Source of the DNA: a virus
Lineage: Duplodnaviria > Heunggongvirae > Uroviricota > Caudoviricetes
Reading direction: 5' to 3' (one strand)
IMG/VR virus record: IMGVR_UViG_2795385890_000001
DNA length: 64,000 nucleotides
Positions within the stretch are counted from its first letter, which is position 1; each line of letters opens with the position of its first letter. The notes under the pieces are model-generated. The model was given only the letters and a program-made list of their open reading frames with translations, made no database searches and had not been told where the DNA came from. Made by a program: the position numbers and the translations under genes. Positions 1 through 32,598 of the stretch are shown here, piece after piece.

Positions 1-37
1 CAGAAGGTTAGGGGTTCGAATCCCTTCGGGCGCACCA
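1..37 (+). tRNA. 3' end of a tRNA gene (T-arm, acceptor 3' strand, CCA), cut by the window edge; probable att core
   Basis: Window begins ...GGTTCGAATCCCTTCGGGCGCACCA: canonical T-loop GGTTCGAATCC, 7-nt acceptor strand, discriminator and CCA. The 5' two-thirds of the tRNA lie outside the window. Confidence 0.55.
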
Positions 38-3124: not shown

Positions 3125-3735
3125 TTGAGAACACCTCGCAACGCCACCCCATCGAGCACCTAGCTGGCTGCCTGGACGGCAACACCTCCAACTACATCGA
3201 GGGCATGGAGCGGTCCGGGCAACAGCAGCTCCTCAAGTCCGACCTCCTCCCTACCGACGCTGGGCGGGTGTGGTCAGGCGAGGGCGACGCAATGCTCGGC
3301 ATCAACGGCTGGGATGTTCTGGAACAGTGGGGATTCCAACGCGGCGAAATCGTTGAGGGCGACCCGCTGTTCGTCCGCGCCACCCTCCCGGAAGGGTGGT
3401 CACGCAAGGGCAGTGAACACGCCATGCACTCAACCATTGTCGACGACCGCGGCGTTGAACGCGTCAGCGTCTTCTACAAGGCCGCCTTCTACGACCGCCG
3501 CGCCAGCATGTCCGTGATCACCGACCCCGGAGGCAATCTCGGAAGCAACGCGATCTATGGCGACGCCGCCGTGGCCCTGCCGGAGGAATGGGCGGTGCTC
3601 ACCACCGAAGAGCGCGAGGGATTCCGAGGCGCGCTCGATAGCTATCTACGGCGGGCCGAAGAGTATCCAGACATCTACGGGGACCGGGTGCCACGCGTGC
3701 ATAATCTCGTTGCGCTGGTGGAGGCCGCAGCATGA
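3121..3735 (+). CDS. Hypothetical protein
   Basis: MIENTSQRHPIEHLAGCLDGNTSNYIEG...; in-frame part of track ORF 2995..3735, ATGA coupling on both sides. Confidence 0.5.
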   Translation: MIENTSQRHPIEHLAGCLDGNTSNYIEGMERSGQQQLLKSDLLPTDAGRVWSGEGDAMLGINGWDVLEQWGFQRGEIVEGDPLFVRATLPEGWSRKGSEHAMHSTIVDDRGVERVSVFYKAAFYDRRASMSVITDPGGNLGSNAIYGDAAVALPEEWAVLTTEEREGFRGALDSYLRRAEEYPDIYGDRVPRVHNLVALVEAAA

Positions 3736-25504: not shown

Positions 25505-26538
25505 CGCAACGTGATCCGCACCGCTGCGCGTTCGGACACCGCTGCGTAAACCACGACTGGTCAACCGTCGTTGACGAAGATGACGCACCCTCCGGCCAAC
25601 TCATTGCCGACGGTGTGATCTGCGGCGGCTGCCTAACCCGCCTCCGGTACGCCGTCAACGGCCTACCCCGGGACTGGGACCGGCTCCACGAAGGCATCGG
25701 GGAACGCGTGTATGTCGACCGAGCACGCGTCACCATGACCTCCACCGCAGCCATCAACCTCAACACCCAACGCGACGCCCTCCAACGCGACATCGTCGAG
25801 ACCGCCGACCGGGCAGCGGAAATGGTGGAACACGCGATGAACCTGACCGGCAGGCAGCGTCACGGCCGCCAGGGCTTCACTGTCCACCAACGTCAGGTAG
25901 TCGCCCGCTCCGTCGCCGTGGTCAGCGAAAACCTGGACGTACTCCTCGCCCAGCCCGCCCAACCCATGCTCGTCTGGGGCCGAGTACCCGACGGCGACGA
26001 GGGCTGGCATCCCCAGCACGGACAACCCCGCCACCTCGTAGACCGCGACGGCGTCGACATCGCCCTCCAACTAATCGAGCTGTCCCGCAACGTCTACCAG
26101 GCCCTCGGACTACCCCGACTACGCCACCACTCCGCCATGCCCTGCCCCGCAGTAAAACGGGACGGCCAGCAGTGCGGCGCCTACACCGTCGGCCGCTGGG
26201 ACGGCACCAGCCAATACGACTGCACCACCTGCGGCCGAACATACGGCGAACGGGAATACCCCTGGCTCCAGCGCGGCGTCATCGACCTCATGCGCGAACT
26301 CGAAGAACGGGAGAAAAACATGCAACTACTCGACCAACTCAAACACCTACTAGCCGAGGCATACTGGCGCCTCGACGGCATCAACGACATGGTCCAGCGT
26401 GTCGCCGACGAGCCACTGCTGGACGAGGCGGGCGCCGGACGACTGGTCGTCGACAAGGTGACCACGATCCTCAACGACGGGCTGGTACCGCACCAGACAC
26501 CCGAGCAGCGGCAGACCACACCGTCGGGCGGCAACTGA
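25501..26538 (+). CDS. Hypothetical protein with N-terminal Cys/His cluster
   Basis: 345-aa ORF, GTG-coupled; HRCAFGHRCVNHDW...CGGCLTRL; C-terminal coiled-coil. Confidence 0.45.
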   Translation: MTQRDPHRCAFGHRCVNHDWSTVVDEDDAPSGQLIADGVICGGCLTRLRYAVNGLPRDWDRLHEGIGERVYVDRARVTMTSTAAINLNTQRDALQRDIVETADRAAEMVEHAMNLTGRQRHGRQGFTVHQRQVVARSVAVVSENLDVLLAQPAQPMLVWGRVPDGDEGWHPQHGQPRHLVDRDGVDIALQLIELSRNVYQALGLPRLRHHSAMPCPAVKRDGQQCGAYTVGRWDGTSQYDCTTCGRTYGEREYPWLQRGVIDLMRELEEREKNMQLLDQLKHLLAEAYWRLDGINDMVQRVADEPLLDEAGAGRLVVDKVTTILNDGLVPHQTPEQRQTTPSGGN

Positions 26539-28095: not shown

Positions 28096-28556
28096 CCGGC
28101 ATCGCCTTCGTTGACGTGACCCTGGCATGGAAACGCATCGAGGATCGTTGGCACAAGGGCCGCTGGTTGTGGGTCGCCCACCACCGCGACGACACCGGTG
28201 GGACGTACACCCTGTTGCCGCGGACAGCGGCGGCGGATACAAGCCCCCGGAGGACCCGGAATGCCCCGAGGGCCAGCACCATCCACCTACAGCTCCGGCA
28301 AGTCATGGCACAGGCGAAACTGGAGGTAACAGCGCTGGTAGCGGGTCTGGCGGTAGCGGTGGGTCCTCGGCGAGTGGAGGGGCTGGCACCGGACGGTGAT
28401 GGTCGCGGCTACCGAGCGGCTATACAGCCAAGCCCCAATCCTGTTGCCGCACCGCTATACCGCGGTATAGCTTCGTTTTCAGACAACAAAACAACGGACG
28501 ACGTGAACAGGATGCAGGTCGGTTATCTCGGGGTACGCCCCCGTAGTTCAAGTTAG
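28092..28556 (+). CDS. Hypothetical protein (only the N-terminal ~70 aa look protein-like; true stop uncertain)
   Basis: ATGA-coupled start. Distal half is low-complexity and overlaps the palindrome/terminator at 28455-28480. Confidence 0.25.
   Translation: MTGIAFVDVTLAWKRIEDRWHKGRWLWVAHHRDDTGGTYTLLPRTAAADTSPRRTRNAPRASTIHLQLRQVMAQAKLEVTALVAGLAVAVGPRRVEGLAPDGDGRGYRAAIQPSPNPVAAPLYRGIASFSDNKTTDDVNRMQVGYLGVRPRSSS
28455..28470. terminator. 16-bp perfect palindrome CTATACCGCGGTATAG followed by TTCGTTTTC (terminator-like; related to the palindrome at 31514)
   Basis: AT-containing perfect palindrome in GC-rich DNA, with a T-run 3' of it, immediately upstream of the tRNA-like repeat array. Confidence 0.4.
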
Positions 28557-28615
28557 AACGCCCCGAGCCAAGCGGGGAAATGGAGCCAAACCCGCCCAGC
28601 GCCAACCACGTTCAC
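28503..28615 (+). ncRNA. Degenerate Y-RNA-like repeat unit 0 (conserved 5'/3' helix elements present, tRNA-like arms decayed)
   Basis: Starts with the conserved block GTGAACAGGATGCAGGTCGGTTATC and ends with CACGTTCAC, which pairs with the 5' GTGAAC. Internal arms are not canonical. Confidence 0.3.
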
Positions 28616-28654
28616 GTCGTACCCCAGACCACAACTACATAGACACCAGATGGT

Positions 28655-28780
28655 GCGAGCAGGACGCAGGTCGGTTACCACTTCTAATGGAGAGGTCGCG
28701 GGTTCGAGTCCCGCCAGCCAGCCCCCGGCTGTAGCTCAGTTGGCAGAGCGCTAAACCCCGGTCAGCACACACACGTTCGC
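28655..28780 (+). ncRNA. Y-RNA-like repeat unit 1 with tRNA-like domain (T-arm GCGGGTTCGAGTCCCGC, acceptor hairpin CAGCCAG/CCGGCTG, D-arm GCTCAGTTGGCAGAGC)
   Basis: Permuted tRNA-like order, no anticodon arm. Outer helix GCGAGC/GTTCGC, inner helix CAGGTCGG/CCGGTCAG. Confidence 0.6.
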
Positions 28781-28817
28781 CCCATCACCCAACACAACTC
28801 CATACACGCATCGGGGT

Positions 28818-28953
28818 GCGACCAGGACGCATGGTCGGTTATCGCATTCGGAGCGGGAGGTCGCAGGTTCAAATCCTGCCCCCGGCATCACATGTCCGGG
28901 GTAGCTCAGCCTGGCAGAGCGCCTAAAACACCGGTCGGCACACACACGGTCGC
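28818..28953 (+). ncRNA. Y-RNA-like repeat unit 2 (T-arm GCAGGTTCAAATCCTGC, acceptor hairpin CCCCGGC/TCCGGGG, D-arm GCTCAGCCTGGCAGAGC)
   Basis: Outer helix GCGACC/GGTCGC compensates relative to unit 1. Confidence 0.6.
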
Positions 28954-28987
28954 GCCCCCTGACACAACTCCATAGACGCAGCACGGT

Positions 28988-29115
28988 GTGAACAGGACGT
29001 CAGTCGGTTAACTCCTTTCACGAGAGAGACGCGGGTTCGAATCCCGTCGACCACGAAAGTGGTTGTAGCTCAGTGGCCTAGAGCGCTTAACCCCGGCAGA
29101 CACCCACACGCTCAC
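28988..29115 (+). ncRNA. Y-RNA-like repeat unit 3 (T-arm GCGGGTTCGAATCCCGT, acceptor hairpin CGACCAC-gaaa-GTGGTTG, D-arm GCTCAGTGGCCTAGAGC)
   Basis: Perfect 7-bp closed acceptor hairpin; outer helix GTGAAC/GCTCAC. Confidence 0.6.
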
Positions 29116-29154
29116 ACCGCCTCAAACGCCAGCAGACGCACGCGCGCAGGCGGT

Positions 29155-29285
29155 GTGGACAGGACGCAGGGCGGTTACCAAAACAGTCAGGTGTGGGTTC
29201 GAGCCCCACCACCTCGATCGCGGGGTGTAGCCCAATTGGTAGAGGCAATTGTCCACATACGCCGGTCAGCACCCCACACGCCCAC
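29155..29285 (+). ncRNA. Y-RNA-like repeat unit 4 (T-arm GTGGGTTCGAGCCCCAC, acceptor hairpin CACCTCG-atcg-CGGGGTG, weakened D-arm)
   Basis: Outer helix GTGGAC/GCCCAC; D-arm TAGCCCAATTGGTAGAGGC is partly degenerate. Confidence 0.5.
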
Positions 29286-29329
29286 ACCACCTACGCGCAC
29301 GCACGACAGACAACCCGATGTGAACAGGA

Positions 29330-29434
29330 CGCTCGGTCGGTTATCACTCAATTGGTTAATGCAGGTTCAAGCCCTGTCGCCCGCACCCAGTGCGGGTGTA
29401 AAAGCGAAATCCCGGTCAGCACAAACACGTTCAC
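29330..29434 (+). ncRNA. Y-RNA-like repeat unit 5 (T-arm GCAGGTTCAAGCCCTGT, acceptor hairpin CGCCCGC/GCGGGTG, D-arm deleted)
   Basis: Outer helix GTGAAC/GTTCAC is perfect; D-arm replaced by TAAAAGCGAAAT. Confidence 0.45.
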
Positions 29435-29464
29435 ATCACCCGCCCAATAGCCCTCGCGGGTGGC

Positions 29465-29537
29465 ACGAGCAGGATCGCAGTCGGTTACCCCACCCCTCGC
29501 AAGGATGACGAACCCCGGCGGCCCTTCACACGTTCGC
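29465..29537 (+). ncRNA. Degenerate terminal repeat remnant (conserved CGAGCAGGATCGCAGTCGGTTACC ... CACACGTTCGCG only)
   Basis: Has the conserved 5' and 3' helix blocks but no T-arm or D-arm. Lies directly before the RBS of the Ro60 gene. Confidence 0.25.
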
Positions 29538-29569
29538 GCCGCCCGCACCCTCTAACAAGGAGATGCACG

Positions 29570-31285
29570 GTGGACGTTCTCACCACTATCGGAACCCGTA
29601 AGACGCCGCAGTCGCAGCAGGCGGACCCCCGGCAGGTGAAGAACTCCGCCGGTGGCTACACCTTCACCATCGACGACGAGGCCCTGCTGCACCGCTTCCT
29701 CACCCTCGGCACCGACGGCGGCACCTACTACACCAACGCCCCCGACCTCACCAAGGACACAGCGGCCGTCGTGCTCCGCGCAGCAGCCGCCGACCCAGTC
29801 CGCCTCGTCCAGCACATCGTCGAGGTGTCCGTGGACGGACGCGCACCCCGGCAGAACCCGGCCCTGTTCGCCCTCGCCATCGCCGCCGCAGCAGAGGACG
29901 TCGACGGCCGCCGCGCCGCAGCAGCCGCCCTGCCCACGGTCGCCCGCACCGGCACTCAGCTCTACACGTTCGTCAAGTACATGGAGCAGTTCCGCGGGTG
30001 GGGCCGCGCCATGCAGCGGGCCGTCGGCGGCTGGTACCTCGACAAGCCCGTCGACCGCCTCGCCTACCAGCTGGTCAAGTACCGGCAGCGCGAAGGCTGG
30101 ATGCACCGGGACCTCCTGCGCCTGTCTGGCCCCGCCACGGCGGACCCGGCCCGCCGCCTCGCCTTCAACTGGGCAGTCGGCAAGGGCCTGAACGACTACA
30201 TCGGCAAGATCCGGCCCCTCACCGCCGAGCAGTTGAAGGCAGGGGAGCGCAACGCCTCCCGGCCCAAGCTGCCGAATGTCGAGCTGTCGGTTGACCACCC
30301 CCTGGCGATCATCGAGGACTTCGAGGACGCCCAGCGCGCCAGCCAACCCAAGGAATGGGTGAGCATCATTCGACGTGGCAACGGCCTTCCGTGGGAAGCG
30401 TTGCCAGACGTCGCGCTCAACTTCACCGCTGTGTGGGAAGCGCTGATTGAGCATGGGCTGCCGCAGACGGCTTTGATGCGCCAACTGCCTCGTCTGACCC
30501 GGCACGGCGTCCTGCATGGTGAATATCTGGATCGTGTCGTTGCTCAGCTCCAGGACGCCGACCGTCTACGCAAGGGCCGCGTCCACCCGGTCAACGTCCT
30601 GATCGCGCAGCGCACCTACGCGTCCGGGCATTCGGCGCGCGGCGACTCCACCTGGACGCCGGAACGCAAGGTCGTGGATGCCCTGGACGCCGCGTTCTAC
30701 AACGCCTACGGAGCGGTAGAGCCGTCGGGCAAGCGCACCCTGCTGGCGCTGGACGTGTCCGGCTCCATGGGCGCCGCGATCTCAGGTATGCCGCTGACAT
30801 GCCGCGAGGCCGCAGCCGCACTCGCACTCGTCACCACCAACGTCGAGCCCAACCACGAGGTCGTCGGCTTCACCGACGGCCGACAGGCCGCGCGCTCGGG
30901 CTACGGCTACCGGTCCCAGCACCACATCACCCCGCTGGACATCACACCGCGCCGCCGTCTCGACGACGTCTGCCGGTACACCGCCGGACTCAGCTTCGGC
31001 GCTACCGACTGCGCACTCCCCATGCTGTGGGCACAGCAGTCCAAGCGCGAGTTCGACACGTTCGTGGTCATCACCGACAACGAGACCTGGTTCGGCGACG
31101 TCCACCCGCACCAGGCGCTCCGCGACTACCGCAACAAGATGGGCATCAACGCCCGCCTGATCGTTGTCGGCATGACGGCAACCCGCTTCACCATCGCCGA
31201 CCCCGCCGACCCCGGCCAGCTCGACGTATCCGGTTTCGACTCAGCTGTCCCGCAGCTGATCTCGGACTTCTCAGCCGGACTGTAG
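29570..31285 (+). CDS. rsr: Ro60-like TROVE-domain protein with C-terminal vWA/MIDAS domain (Rsr ortholog)
   Basis: N-terminus KNSAGGYTFTIDDEALLHRFLTLGTDGGTYYTNAPDLTKDTAAVVLR...GRAPRQNPALFALAIAAA is the Ro60/Rsr TROVE signature. C-terminus LALDVSGSM is a MIDAS DxSxS motif of vWA. RBS AAGGAG before the GTG start. Confidence 0.8.
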   Translation: MDVLTTIGTRKTPQSQQADPRQVKNSAGGYTFTIDDEALLHRFLTLGTDGGTYYTNAPDLTKDTAAVVLRAAAADPVRLVQHIVEVSVDGRAPRQNPALFALAIAAAAEDVDGRRAAAAALPTVARTGTQLYTFVKYMEQFRGWGRAMQRAVGGWYLDKPVDRLAYQLVKYRQREGWMHRDLLRLSGPATADPARRLAFNWAVGKGLNDYIGKIRPLTAEQLKAGERNASRPKLPNVELSVDHPLAIIEDFEDAQRASQPKEWVSIIRRGNGLPWEALPDVALNFTAVWEALIEHGLPQTALMRQLPRLTRHGVLHGEYLDRVVAQLQDADRLRKGRVHPVNVLIAQRTYASGHSARGDSTWTPERKVVDALDAAFYNAYGAVEPSGKRTLLALDVSGSMGAAISGMPLTCREAAAALALVTTNVEPNHEVVGFTDGRQAARSGYGYRSQHHITPLDITPRRRLDDVCRYTAGLSFGATDCALPMLWAQQSKREFDTFVVITDNETWFGDVHPHQALRDYRNKMGINARLIVVGMTATRFTIADPADPGQLDVSGFDSAVPQLISDFSAGL

Positions 31286-31291
31286 GAACGC

Positions 31292-31519
31292 GTGGACCCA
31301 AGGGCACAGCAGGCGCGGGAGCATCATCGGCTATCAGGTGATGCCTCCCGCGTCGGCGCATTGCACCGCGACCAGCGCGATGCCATAGTGCGGAACCTCT
31401 GGGATACGGAGCGTGAGAAGTGGACCTACGCCACCCTTGCCGCGGCGGTCGAATGCTCACCACAACTCATCCAGAAAATCATCGACGGCCGCACTGGAAC
31501 CACTCGACATAGCGTATAG
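31292..31519 (+). CDS. Small putative HTH protein
   Basis: TYATLAAAVECSPQLIQKIIDGRTG is helix-turn-helix-like. Its stop overlaps the 31514 palindrome. Confidence 0.35.
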   Translation: MDPRAQQAREHHRLSGDASRVGALHRDQRDAIVRNLWDTEREKWTYATLAAAVECSPQLIQKIIDGRTGTTRHSV

Positions 31520-31834: not shown

Positions 31835-32164
31835 ATGACCACCACGTACACCGTTACTCGTGAACAGCTCGACGCCTTCCAGGTGACCCTCGACGACCTC
31901 GATGAGGAGGTTAGTGCCCAGGTTCGCGATGACTACAGCGGCCGAGGCATGTACGGCAACACATGCATCGGCGTCGTCATGGGTGACCTTCGATTCCTGC
32001 CCGCGATCACCGCCGAGTTGGCGTACATCGTTGGTGAACTCGCGTCCAGCGACGACGTCATCGCACTGACCGAGTTCCTGTGGGAATTGCCCACCGAGAC
32101 CGACAGCATGGGCCGCAGCACCATCGTCTACTGGCCCAACGTCCGACTCGCCACGGACTACTGA
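31835..32164 (+). CDS. Hypothetical acidic protein
   Basis: RBS AAGGAGACC; MTTTYTVTREQLDAFQVTLDDL... Confidence 0.45.
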   Translation: MTTTYTVTREQLDAFQVTLDDLDEEVSAQVRDDYSGRGMYGNTCIGVVMGDLRFLPAITAELAYIVGELASSDDVIALTEFLWELPTETDSMGRSTIVYWPNVRLATDY

Positions 32165-32169
32165 CCGCG

Positions 32170-32598
32170 ATGGATTTCAAAACTGCTGCCATGGTGACCC
32201 CAACCATCGGAGCCCCTGTGCCCACCCCACGCATGTTCGGCCTAGGCGCTGTCTTGACTGTCACCACGGACGTGTTCCTGGTGGCCGACATTGGCGACAT
32301 CTACGAACTCCTCAACTACATGACCGGCGACAACCTCTTCACCCACCAATTGCCCCGCGCCGCAGGCGAATGCAAGCCAGCACTGCTGGAACAACACCCC
32401 CAGCTGGCCGCCGTCGATGTACCCGAACTGCCAGACGCAGACGCTTATATGGCCCACCTTGCCGATCTGGAGAAGGTGCACGGCGCCGAACTGGCCGTCG
32501 CACCGCTGGCCACGGGCGCGCACAAGCGCATCAATCCGTTGACCGAGCTAGCTGACATGATGCCCGGCAAGCCCGTAATCGCGGTGATCGCACCATGA
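32170..32598 (+). CDS. Hypothetical protein
   Basis: MDFKTAAMVTPTIGAPVP...; in frame with track ORF 32080..32598. Confidence 0.45.
   Translation: MDFKTAAMVTPTIGAPVPTPRMFGLGAVLTVTTDVFLVADIGDIYELLNYMTGDNLFTHQLPRAAGECKPALLEQHPQLAAVDVPELPDADAYMAHLADLEKVHGAELAVAPLATGAHKRINPLTELADMMPGKPVIAVIAP

Follow-up and report, generated by a model that had tools for sequence, protein, structure and literature searches.

Tandem Y RNAs encoded directly upstream of a Ro60 ortholog, and co-oriented with it, are known from the rsr locus of M. smegmatis, where processing of one precursor gives separate YrlA and YrlB RNAs that accumulate bound to Rsr (PMC4201824). Several small RNAs are likewise encoded upstream of rsr in D. 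radiodurans and Salmonella; in the Rsr-Yrn1-PNPase complex (RYPER) of the former and the rsr-yrlBA-rtcBA system of the latter, a Y RNA stem binds the Ro ring and a distal module tethers PNPase. The tRNA-like arms of Yrn1 are ordered, relative to the 5' end, unlike those of YrlA RNAs, and deletion of the Yrn1 T arm leaves complex assembly unaffected (Chen 2014, PMC4201824). Phage Ro60 with Y RNAs is also already known. Cluster C mycobacteriophages (ET08 and 21 others) encode a Ro60 with a YrlA-type tRNA-like RNA upstream on the same strand (Chen 2014, PMC4201824), and the accessible part of a 2025 report on Thermus phage phiLo describes Y-RNA-like genes directly upstream of a phage Ro60, with binding and a ternary complex of Ro60, two Yrl RNAs and host PNPase demonstrated in vitro; that part ascribes a CGAA motif to the two Yrls and mentions no tRNA-like domain (PMC12135203). 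Given publication since 2014 (PMC4201824), biochemistry in 2025 (PMC12135203) and a tandem arrangement at nearly all of the 130 other Ro loci that we surveyed (nearly every actinobacterial Ro gene among them), the first-pass annotation of the DNA analysed here overstated the case in calling a phage-borne array unusual.

The locus that we describe lies in a 64-kb stretch of a MabK prophage (64,000 nt, hereafter the window) that runs from RecET and early genes to terminase and tail genes. The prophage is 76 kb long, temperate and of siphovirus type, with seven Y RNA units and no true tRNA. The 1.05 kb directly upstream of Ro (28496-29546, + strand) encodes seven co-oriented, structurally conserved RNAs (U1-U7; Table 1), and the locus is very probably a Ro60-Y RNA module belonging to a temperate Mycobacterium abscessus phage of the MabK cluster. 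It shares with the M. smegmatis rsr locus the position and orientation of the Y RNAs, the 5' block (GAUCGGUUACC vs GGUCGGUUACC), an identical 3' CACACG block, the V, T, acceptor, D order with a 7-bp acceptor-like hairpin, and the spacer motif CACAACUNCA; the two Ro proteins are 65% identical. By contrast, the host locus has two units rather than seven, its YrlB retains a T arm that the last unit of the window lacks, and the window module is phage-borne, amid early lytic genes. Cluster C phages differ from the temperate, tRNA-free window prophage in being lytic myoviruses of about 155 kb with about 30 tRNAs; cluster C-comparable loci (L108, L109 and L121) have just two or three units, and the Ro proteins of L108 and L109 are only 54-55% identical to that of the window. 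The phiLo lineage is very distant from the window, whose seven units belong to the actinobacterial YrlA type. In Salmonella the operon is under RtcR control and has a link to RtcB/RtcA, whereas we found no RNA repair genes near the window's Ro module. For the MabK prophage group, the literature searched holds no description of a large, diversified RNA array.

Table 1. Features of the Ro60-Y RNA locus, in window coordinates. R1 and R2 are the covariance models described in the text.
Feature	Position	Strand	Evidence
Perfect 18-bp palindrome (GCTATACCGCGGTATAGC), then T-rich run	28454..28480	+	Terminator-like match, 25 nt upstream of U1
U1, atypical Y RNA	28496..28624	+	R1 49.1 bits, E = 3e-9, outside training set
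U2, closest YrlA homolog	28647..28789	+	Rfam YrlA 37.6 bits; R1 146 bits
U3, YrlA-type	28810..28962	+	Rfam YrlA 36.7 bits over full model; R1 130.9 bits
U4, YrlA-type	28980..29124	+	Rfam YrlA 26.5 bits; R1 140.5 bits
U5, YrlA-type	29147..29294	+	Rfam YrlA 25.8 bits; R1 123 bits
U6, T arm without D arm	29312..29443	+	R1 101 bits
U7, minimal 90-nt Y RNA	29457..29546	+	R1 36.5 bits, E = 2e-6, outside training set; R2 40.2 bits
Ribosome-binding site AAGGAG	29557..29562	+	Read from sequence; 7 nt before Ro GTG start
Ro60/Rsr ortholog gene, 571 aa	29570..31285	+	Pfam TROVE and vWA_Ro60, PDB matches

The units share a long terminal stem and two conserved blocks, one on the 5' side containing GGUCGGUUA and one on the 3' side containing CACACG. 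The first-pass annotation had recognised a tandem array and seven copies of a conserved block, and both observations stand (CAGGAY-N3-7-KCGGTTA, starting at 28508, 28660, 28823, 28993, 29160, 29325 and 29470), although its count of about six units has to be raised to the seven found by covariance model. It had also assigned T and D arms to five units: the five T arms, with GGTTCRA loops, are present (28701, 28866, 29034, 29196 and 29364), but only four units, U2-U5, have a D arm. These four follow the YrlA order, with the T arm first, then the acceptor-like hairpin, closed and 7 bp long, and last the D arm; the D arm is missing from U6, and the T arm from U1 and U7. CCGG...CACACG closes six units, with a variant 3' block in U1. 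U2 runs from its terminal stem through the GGUCGGUUA block, V arm, T arm (GCGGGUUCGAGUCCCGC), acceptor-like hairpin (CAGCCAG-CCC-CCGGCUG) and D arm (UAGCUCAGUUGGCAGAGC) to the 3' block (CCGGUCAGCACACACACG), and the 5' probe for M. smegmatis YrlA (PMC4201824) is almost identical to its sequence. U3 has T arm GCAGGUUCAAAUCCUGC, a bulged 9-bp acceptor-like hairpin and D arm UAGCUCAGCCUGGCAGAGC; U4 has T arm GCGGGUUCGAAUCCCGU, a perfect 7-bp acceptor-like hairpin with a GAAA tetraloop, and D arm UAGCUCAGUGGCCUAGAGC; U5 has T arm GUGGGUUCGAGCCCCAC, a 7-bp acceptor-like hairpin containing G3.U70 (CACCUCG-AUCG-CGGGGUG) and a weaker D arm (UAGCCCAAUUGGUAGAGGC), and its outer extra stem reaches about 29142-29298. 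U6 combines T arm GCAGGUUCAAGCCCUGU with a 9-bp hairpin. The terminal stem of U1 (ACGACGUGAAC/GUUCACGUCGU; 5' block CAGGAUGCAGGUCGGUUA) encloses a small hairpin capped by UACG and another that resembles a D arm (UAGUUCAAGUUAGAAC). U7, in the YrlB position immediately before the Ro gene, consists of a 15-bp terminal stem and a GUCGGUUA block, with no tRNA-like part; the published motif GNCGAAN0-1G has no literal match in the units, which carry GUCGGUUA instead.

We searched with two covariance models, R1, trained only on U2-U5 and U6 of the window, and the broader R2, which was used on 130 other Ro loci. Across the 64-kb window R1 returns exactly seven matches, all on the + strand within 28495-29546 and including the untrained U1 and U7, and R2 returns the same seven. 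R1 also recovers M. smegmatis YrlA (107 bits), for which Rsr binding is experimentally established, and YrlB (45.6 bits), and these matches contain the Northern probes of PMC4201824; by covariance-model comparison, the seven RNAs are homologous to YrlA and YrlB. The Rfam YrlA scan suggested by the first-pass annotation gives no match at the gathering score (69) and, with an E-value threshold, four units at 25.8-37.6 bits, below that score. The miss at the gathering score is uninformative for actinobacterial YrlA, because the validated M. smegmatis YrlA itself reaches just 45.1 bits. All seven units fold with a terminal stem whose sequence varies between units while pairing is kept; single-unit folding z-scores are modest (-0.7 to -2.9; U1, -2.85). 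Among 148 units, counted in alignments fitted to the model itself, 94.6% of cells are paired versus 32-45% with slid partners, 31 of the 34 base pairs in the model vary in a compensatory way, and the covariation score is 0.479 versus <=0.09 in slid controls; the 77 phage units alone give the same picture. The earlier reading of a phage Ro60 with a YrlA-type tRNA-like array is thus borne out by the recovery of validated YrlA and YrlB and by covariation that supports the fold. As direct repeats in tandem, recurring about every 145-170 bp, the units might instead act as DNA, as iterons, attachment sites or protein-binding repeats, but the compensatory changes, the placement of units on the Ro strand in almost all loci and the homology to RNAs detected by Northern blot make this scarcely credible.

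Canonical T and D arms are also common to the window units and to phage tRNA arrays such as that of the MabI prophage prophiGD54-2 (21 tRNAs; PMC8092301), where tandem tRNA-shaped genes likewise lie in the early region. Indeed, ARAGORN calls a tRNA-Arg(tct) at 28646-28724, inside U2, and MW584167 (prophiGD43A-5) annotates a tRNA-Thr(tgt) at the orthologous place; the latter is part of U2, of which we found no report in the literature searched. A reading of the region as clustered tRNA genes of degenerate or unusual form is nonetheless exceedingly improbable: the units lack an anticodon arm, their acceptor is a closed hairpin that sits, in a permuted order, between a leading T arm and a trailing D arm, and the Rfam tRNA models, whose gathering scores are 29 and 47, give only 16-18 bits. 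Moreover, the supposed anticodon is UCU in one copy and UGU in another, the two differing at only 2 of 79 positions, and what the called tRNA uses as acceptor and D region is the 5' strand predicted to bind Ro. Unlike phage tRNA arrays, the window units have a predicted Ro-binding terminal helix and are linked to Ro. We judge the ARAGORN call false.

The protein encoded downstream matches Pfam TROVE (9e-46) and vWA_Ro60 (6.5e-64), as had been expected, and aligns over nearly its full length with D. radiodurans Rsr (PDB 2nvo, 7e-103), 9nen (6e-101) and 1yvp (3e-100). Its architecture comprises a TROVE HEAT-repeat ring and a Ro60-type vWA domain with the MIDAS motif DVSGS (residues 395-399), in which D395, S397 and S399 are invariant in an alignment of 12 sequences. 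These matches identify the open reading frame as a full-length Ro60/Rsr and agree with its earlier description as a protein with an unambiguous Ro60/TROVE N-terminus and a vWA MIDAS; GenBank MW584167 and OQ417969 label the gene 'Ro-like RNA binding protein'.

Where the Ro of another prophage is about 75-76% identical to that of the window, and only 59% identical at third codon positions, positional orthologs of the units reach 77-89% identity; between paralogs of the array, identity is just 39-77%. Judged from this conservation, every unit is maintained by selection as a distinct gene, and the first-pass description of progressively decayed units is refuted, since each is a positional ortholog conserved across diverged prophages. 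Array and Ro are common to prophages at about 75% identity whose flanks otherwise barely align. U1 orthologs in MabK relatives are 97-99% identical; U3 is found in the window and in L084/L085 and is missing from prophiGD43A-5 and prophiT37-1, with a 78% identical ortholog in L092. The U6 ortholog of L092 (89% identity) likewise has no D arm, a form kept in distant prophages. R2 places units upstream of Ro in 129 of the 130 other loci (the exception is L129), almost always on the Ro strand. Most loci have a short unit directly upstream of Ro, and the window units, which point the same way as the Ro gene, stop just 23 nt short of its start codon (30 bp in the first-pass annotation), a gap that contains the ribosome-binding site; we found no separate promoter or terminator between array and Ro. 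The array might act mainly in cis, as a structured Ro mRNA leader: by binding Y-like helices of its own transcript before processing, Ro60 would autoregulate translation or stability, with free Y RNAs as a by-product. We consider this unlikely: the homologous M. smegmatis YrlA and YrlB are discrete processed Rsr-bound RNAs (PMC4201824), seven diversified units that conserve tRNA-like domains would be superfluous in a leader, and three Promicromonospora loci (L021, L024 and L055) each have one strong YrlA-like match on the opposite, minus strand, 1.4-2.7 kb upstream (L114 has one weak minus-strand match).

We propose that rightward transcription of the early-lytic block of phage genes probably yields a single RNA spanning all seven units and the Ro message, and that cleavage within the C/A-rich spacers of 17-26 nt then probably separates the units of this Ro60-Y RNA module, as in the processing of the M. 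smegmatis YrlA/YrlB precursor. The terminal helix of each RNA would bind the outer surface of the Ro60 ring via its conserved 5' strand (CAGGACGCAGGUCGGUUA), and the variable inner module, a tRNA-like elbow in U2-U5 (T arm, 7-bp acceptor-like hairpin, D arm) and reduced in U1, U6 and U7, would serve as an adaptor or gate. Such an adaptor could tether Ro60 to host factors such as PNPase, retargeting structured-RNA decay or quality control during infection, and seven differing inner modules could offer one Ro ring several alternative partners or regulators. PNPase may be the partner by analogy with the Ro60-Y RNA-PNPase complexes documented for D. radiodurans, Salmonella and phiLo, the functional model being the same as that in the accessible part of the phiLo report (PMC12135203). 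An alternative possibility is that the tRNA-like domains work largely without Ro, as decoys or sponges that occupy host enzymes recognising tRNA, such as RNase P, the CCA-adding enzyme, modification enzymes and toxins or defence nucleases that cleave tRNA; Ro would only stabilise them. Four to five units have tRNA-like T, acceptor and D elements, and acceptor-like stems are mostly 7 bp (perfect 7 bp in 81 of 143 surveyed units). Arrays are also larger in viral contigs (up to nine units, in one contig) than at bacterial genome loci (at most four), a difference of which we found no report in the literature searched, and a BrnT-like ribonuclease toxin cassette lies directly upstream in sibling prophages. 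However, the anticodon arm, the usual anticodon-nuclease target, is missing from the units, U1 and U7 are conserved though they have no tRNA-like part, and the toxin cassette is absent from the window, so its linkage to the module is not obligatory. We regard a decoy role as improbable.

The toxin-antitoxin cassette that neighbours the module in prophiGD43A-5 has been described within early lytic genes, and RNA-seq of that lysogen as mostly silent outside the toxin-immunity locus (PMC8092301); we therefore presume that the array and Ro are expressed in the lytic phase or on induction by stress. The region upstream of U1 yielded no consensus promoter. The palindrome located there occurs once in the window, and its position is conserved only in close MabK relatives; it may terminate transcription of the genes upstream, or serve as an operator or promoter-overlapping site.

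We consider a phage-encoded Ro particle to be the best-supported model of this locus. Both domains anticipated for the protein by the first-pass annotation are present in Pfam searches, namely the HEAT-repeat ring of TROVE (PF05731, residues 23-347, E = 9.3e-46) and a C-terminal Ro60-type vWA domain (PF25045, residues 389-567, E = 6.5e-64), and solved Ro60/Rsr chains match it over nearly its full length (D. radiodurans Rsr 2nvo, 6.9e-103; 9nen, 5.8e-101, residues 14-568; 1yvp, 3.3e-100). The MIDAS motif (DxSxS) reads DVSGS at residues 395-399, with D395, S397 and S399 unchanged across 12 Ro relatives (alignment A1), and the two closest GenBank records label the ortholog "Ro-like RNA binding protein". 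A small ORF immediately 3' of Ro has a weak, sub-threshold match to a helix-turn-helix, and an ORF ~0.8 kb 3' of Ro matches DUF7736 (Pfam, 7.5e-25); no function was recognised for the other Ro neighbours in Pfam or PHROGs, and the same searches of the ten neighbouring ORFs identified no RNA repair, RNA processing or RNase gene.

Upstream of Ro, a pattern search found seven copies of CAGGAY-N3-7-KCGGTTA along with five T loops (GGTTCRA) and six 3' blocks (CCGG...CACACG), confirming the siting of the repeats and the seven conserved-block copies and five T arms noted at first reading; a repeat finder recovers the same repeat families at a spacing of ~150-170 nt. The array had been described as having about six units. 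We count seven (U1-U7), since R1, a covariance model built from five of them (U2-U6), and R2, a broader covariance model, each return exactly seven matches. Those of R1 in the 64-kb window all fall within 28495-29546 on the + strand, and include the two units on which it was not trained, U1 (E = 3e-9) and U7 (E = 2e-6); R2 returns the identical seven and nothing further. T arms are absent from U1 and U7, and there are four D arms (U2-U5) rather than the five originally listed, with none in U6. All seven units lie upstream of the Ro start on its strand, at distances of 23-1075 nt; the gap from U7 to the GTG is thus 23 nt, not the 30 bp first given, and contains AAGGAG.

In every unit, the 5' and 3' ends are predicted to pair as a long terminal helix, whose sequence varies between units while pairing is kept. 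Inward of this helix, every unit has a conserved internal loop, in which CAGGACGCA faces CACACAC, followed by an inner helix, GGUCGG/CCGGUC. In U2-U5 the inner helix encloses a variable hairpin, then a canonical T arm, then a closed acceptor-like hairpin (7-9 bp, with loops CCC, CAC, GAAA and AUCG) and finally a canonical D arm with its GG dinucleotide. None of the seven units has an anticodon arm; in the modelled folds, a putative Ro-binding helix occupies the position of the anticodon stem.

This YrlA-type structure is backed by covariation. Standard pairs fill 92% of cells in 77 phage units and 94.6% in 148 phage and bacterial units, compared with 31-41% and 32-45%, respectively, when the pairing partners are slid; compensatory changes occur in 23/34 pairs (77 units) and 31/34 pairs (148 units). 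The covariation scores are 0.292 (slid, <=0.082) for the smaller set and 0.479 (slid, <=0.09) for the larger, from alignments fitted to the model and hence biased toward the structure, with a large margin over the controls. A plain MAFFT alignment of five window units likewise shows covariation in the terminal stem. We relied on covariation because single-sequence folding energies are only weakly better than those of shuffled sequences (z -0.7 to -2.9). The units might be nothing other than repeats at the level of DNA, as their recovery by a repeat finder would allow; with pairing maintained in this way, we give that reading next to no chance.

Ro60/Rsr proteins are characterised by binding of Y RNA and misfolded RNA, and YrlA RNAs by expression, binding by Ro, modification by TruB/DusA and cleavage by RNase P. 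At gathering scores, no Rfam family matches the window. With an E-value threshold, YrlA (RF02553) is the only family matched repeatedly, at 37.6 bits for U2, 36.7 for U3, 26.5 for U4 and 25.8 for U5 (gathering score 69), such that the Infernal scan suggested in the first-pass annotation is negative at the gathering score and positive below it for these four units. This threshold is uninformative for Actinobacteria, because it misses not only every window unit but also the experimentally validated YrlA of M. smegmatis (L132, the rsr locus, 2739-2803), which scores 45.1 bits with the tRNA-like core alone aligned; the null result in the window is therefore no evidence of absence, and RF02553 appears to under-detect actinobacterial members. 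R1 matches the M. smegmatis rsr locus at both YrlA (107 bits; E = 9e-23) and YrlB (45.6 bits), and the Northern probe sequences for these RNAs (Chen et al., 2014; PMC4201824) fall within the matches. Both RNAs have been shown to be bound by Rsr (PMC4201824), and the match of a model made from window units to an Rsr-bound YrlA sustains the original proposal of a YrlA-type Ro/Y-RNA module. An array that precedes Ro on the same strand could alternatively be a leader of the Ro mRNA that acts in cis; alongside the match to Rsr-bound RNAs, we regard this as improbable.

The order that defines YrlA is a permuted one, V arm, T arm, acceptor-like stem, D arm (PMC4201824). U2-U5 have this order within a helix of the 5' and 3' ends; U1, U6 and U7 are Y-RNA-like, not full YrlA. 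All seven lie on the same strand as the Ro60 ortholog and within the <=4 kb used by Chen et al. (2014) to assign YrlA. The published 5' motif, GNCGAAN0-1G, is not matched literally, the units having G(G/U)CGGUUA, i.e. GNCGGU; since the validated YrlA and YrlB of M. smegmatis have this variant too (GAUCGGUUA), it is a shared actinobacterial form. The M. smegmatis RNAs further resemble the window units in their GAUCGGUUACC and CACACG blocks, 7-bp acceptor-like hairpin and spacer motif CACAACUNCA. U7 (90 nt) has the motif and stem and occupies the position of YrlB, between the YrlA-type units and Ro, but it lacks the T arm found in M. smegmatis YrlB, for which the R1 alignment consists mainly of the terminal-stem blocks and that arm. 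The spacers after U1, U2 and U3 contain CACAACU(A/C)CAUA, and the YrlA-YrlB spacers of M. smegmatis (L132 2839) and M. wolinskyi (L006 3849) read CACAACUUCA; judged from sequence, this shared motif could be a conserved inter-unit processing signal.

Features of the window, and unit counts at Ro loci in the census
Feature or locus group	Position	Strand	Detail
ORF across junction	28092-28556		Gene-48-like start; probably not a real gene
Junction (cassette absent)	28230
Palindrome and T run	28454-28480		GCTATACCGCGGTATAGC, then TTCGTTTTCA
CAGGAY-N3-7-KCGGTTA copies	starts 28508, 28660, 28823, 28993, 29160, 29325, 29470	+	n = 7
U1 terminal helix (predicted)		+	ACGACGUGAAC (5' strand) / GUUCACGUCGU (3' strand)
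U3 terminal helix (predicted)		+	GGGGUGCGACC (5' strand) / GGUCGCGCCCC (3' strand)
U7 terminal helix (predicted)		+	GCGGGUGGCACGAGC (5' strand) / GUUCGCGCCGCCCGC (3' strand)
Spacer motif after U1, U2, U3	28630-28640, 28793-28803, 28963-28973		CACAACU(A/C)CAUA
ARAGORN tRNA-Arg(tct) call	28646-28724		Single call
U5 acceptor-like hairpin	29193-29240
Ro60/Rsr ORF	29570-31285	+	571 aa; GTG start at 29570
Small ORF 3' of Ro	31292-31519
DUF7736 ORF	32080-32598
Bacterial genome loci			<=4 units per locus (81 loci, 195 matches)
Cluster-C-like large myophages (L108, L109, L121)			2-3 units
L091-L095, L100			5 units
L107			5 units
MabK prophages including window			5-7 units
L105, L116			6 units
L103, 110-kb uncultivated viral contig IMGVR_UViG_3300019888_000107	2867-3983 of locus		9 contiguous units; largest array in census

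Annotation tools place a tRNA within the array. ARAGORN makes one call, tRNA-Arg(tct), and at the orthologous site (26001-26079; L001 6247-6325) the GenBank record of prophiGD43A-5, MW584167, annotates a tRNA-Thr(tgt), which Table 1 of Dedrick et al. (PMC8092301) counts as the single tRNA of that prophage. The two copies differ at 2/79 positions, including one in the putative anticodon, and the units score 16.4 bits with the Rfam tRNA model (gathering score 29) and 18.4 bits with tRNA-Sec (gathering score 47). On the permuted arms, the closed acceptor hairpin, the low tRNA scores and the changing "anticodon", we reject canonical tRNA identity, and it is vanishingly improbable that the units are true tRNA genes. 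Indeed, the earlier view that the units lack an anticodon arm, and that none is a normal tRNA, is borne out by arm order, folds and tRNA model scores. Because its segment corresponds to the 5' part of U2, the MW584167 annotation is very likely wrong; correcting it is a practical gain of this analysis. Canonical T and D arms could also make the units tRNA decoys that work independently of Ro; we hold this to be very improbable. The acceptor-like hairpin of U5 has G3.U70 and G2-C71 with A at the discriminator position, a combination that constitutes the identity set of alanyl-tRNA synthetase. We set an alanine identity aside, since close orthologs (L001, L002, L084, L086 and L090) have C as the discriminator and G.U at 3-70, found in 10/112 stems, is no commoner there than at other stem positions; the resemblance is probably due to chance.

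Our census covered 132 Ro loci, among them 80 from bacterial genomes and 48 from viral contigs encoding a Ro relative, searched with R1 and R2; units were counted as R2 matches at E <= 1e-3. Since matches lie immediately upstream of Ro on the same strand in nearly all loci, tandem Y RNA arrays are the rule. The final match before Ro tends to be a short unit (80-120 nt), and among the loci searched only L129 lacks an R2 match. Three Promicromonospora loci are exceptions to the near-universal co-orientation, each with one strong YrlA-like match that lies 1.4-2.7 kb upstream of Ro but on the other strand (L021 2423-2563, L024 1421-1564 and L055 1326-1467, all -). The first-pass annotation had judged a phage-borne multi-unit array unusual, a view that is overstated given the near-universality of tandem arrays upstream of Ro and viral arrays of up to nine units, all nine with the terminal stem and motifs (L103). 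The window array is near the top of the size range, not unique. Arrays that reach 5-9 units in viral contigs, versus <=4 in the bacterial loci searched, point to a phage-specific, genetically testable use of Ro.

Units of the window array are 39-77% identical to one another, and MabK relatives have a positional ortholog of each at 88-100% identity. A second prophage group (L091-L095) has orthologs of U2, U3, U6 and U7 at 86%, 78%, 89% and 77% identity, respectively, with a Ro protein that is 76% identical and Ro third codon positions that are 59% identical. Because ortholog identity exceeds that of third codon positions, sequence comparison indicates that the array is ancient and that each unit is under purifying selection. 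On the same numbers we reject the idea that the units are progressively decayed; the one clear case of decay seen is in the MabK relative L086, whose U4 (3428-3577) has lost its 3' strand, with both the 3' block and the outer stem. Copy number varies, with U3 found in the window, L084 and L085 and missing from prophiGD43A-5 and prophiT37-1. The array and Ro are ~75% identical to those of prophages whose flanks barely align, and therefore behave as a mosaic module.

Conservation of Ro60-Y RNA particles extends from bacteria to humans, and what they do is still poorly defined. Infections with the pathogen M. abscessus are hard to treat, and its strain diversity, like the outcome of phage therapy, is shaped by its prophages. 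A prophage bringing a complete Ro particle and seven distinct Y RNAs, each maintained by selection, is a compact natural system in which to study the function of individual Y RNA effector modules. Under the model of a phage-encoded Ro particle, the seven RNAs would probably be released from a common transcript; each unit may bind Ro60 via the conserved 5' strand of its terminal helix, with GGUCGGUUA as the proposed Ro-binding motif; and the inner module of each unit would tether or gate Ro, most plausibly toward host PNPase. A Ro-Y RNA-PNPase arrangement is documented in D. radiodurans and Salmonella (PMC4201824), and a 2025 study describes a Ro60-Yrl-PNPase complex in vitro for Thermus phage phiLo (PMC12135203).

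A more speculative extension, which we think unlikely, is that actinobacteriophages expanded one or two host-type Y RNAs into 5-9 diverged, individually conserved adaptors or decoys for one Ro60. As adaptors, units with different tRNA-like or reduced effector modules would programme a single phage Ro60 ring to recruit PNPase, other RNases, RNase P, the CCA-adding enzyme and possibly synthetases; as decoys, tRNA-shaped units would counter host tRNA-targeting defences during lytic growth. If true, a multi-adaptor array would be a multi-guide device for the takeover of RNA metabolism, not a redundant rise in copy number.

The kind of module is already known, given that mycobacteriophage Ro60 dates from 2003, as cited in PMC4201824, and that YrlA-like RNAs adjoin Ro in 22 phages (Chen et al., 2014; PMC4201824); a Listeria phage study and a screen of mycobacteriophage LeBron likewise discuss phage Ro. 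New relative to the literature found are an array of seven units in MabK prophages, the ancient conservation of its individual units, and the equivalence of the MW584167 tRNA-Thr to the 5' part of U2. The literature searched yielded no description of larger arrays in viral contigs than in bacterial loci.

The window is itself a MabK-cluster prophage of M. abscessus; it begins at position 1 of the prophage record and is 92-98% identical to prophiGD43A-5 and prophiT37-1, with RecE/RecT and early genes followed by the Ro module and then by terminase and tail genes. Both prophages carry a BrnT-like toxin-antitoxin cassette just upstream of the array, on the opposite strand, which the window lacks. 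Dedrick et al. (PMC8092301) place the cassette within early lytic genes and describe the lysogen as mostly silent beyond the toxin-immunity locus, from which we infer that the Ro module is most likely expressed in lytic growth. The stretch missing from the window is ~1.2-1.3 kb (L001 4518-5828; L002 4673-5837) and in prophiGD43A-5 comprises the end of gene 48 and the opposite-strand BrnT-like toxin/antitoxin pair; its deletion leaves an ORF that runs from a gene-48-like start through formerly non-coding sequence into U1. A consensus scan found no consensus promoter upstream of U1. A perfect palindrome of 18 bp, with a T run after it, lies 25 nt upstream of U1; it occurs nowhere else in the window, is kept only in close MabK relatives, and may serve as a terminator or operator. 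A possible, weak promoter-like sequence, TTGCCG-N18-TAGCTT, overlaps this palindrome.
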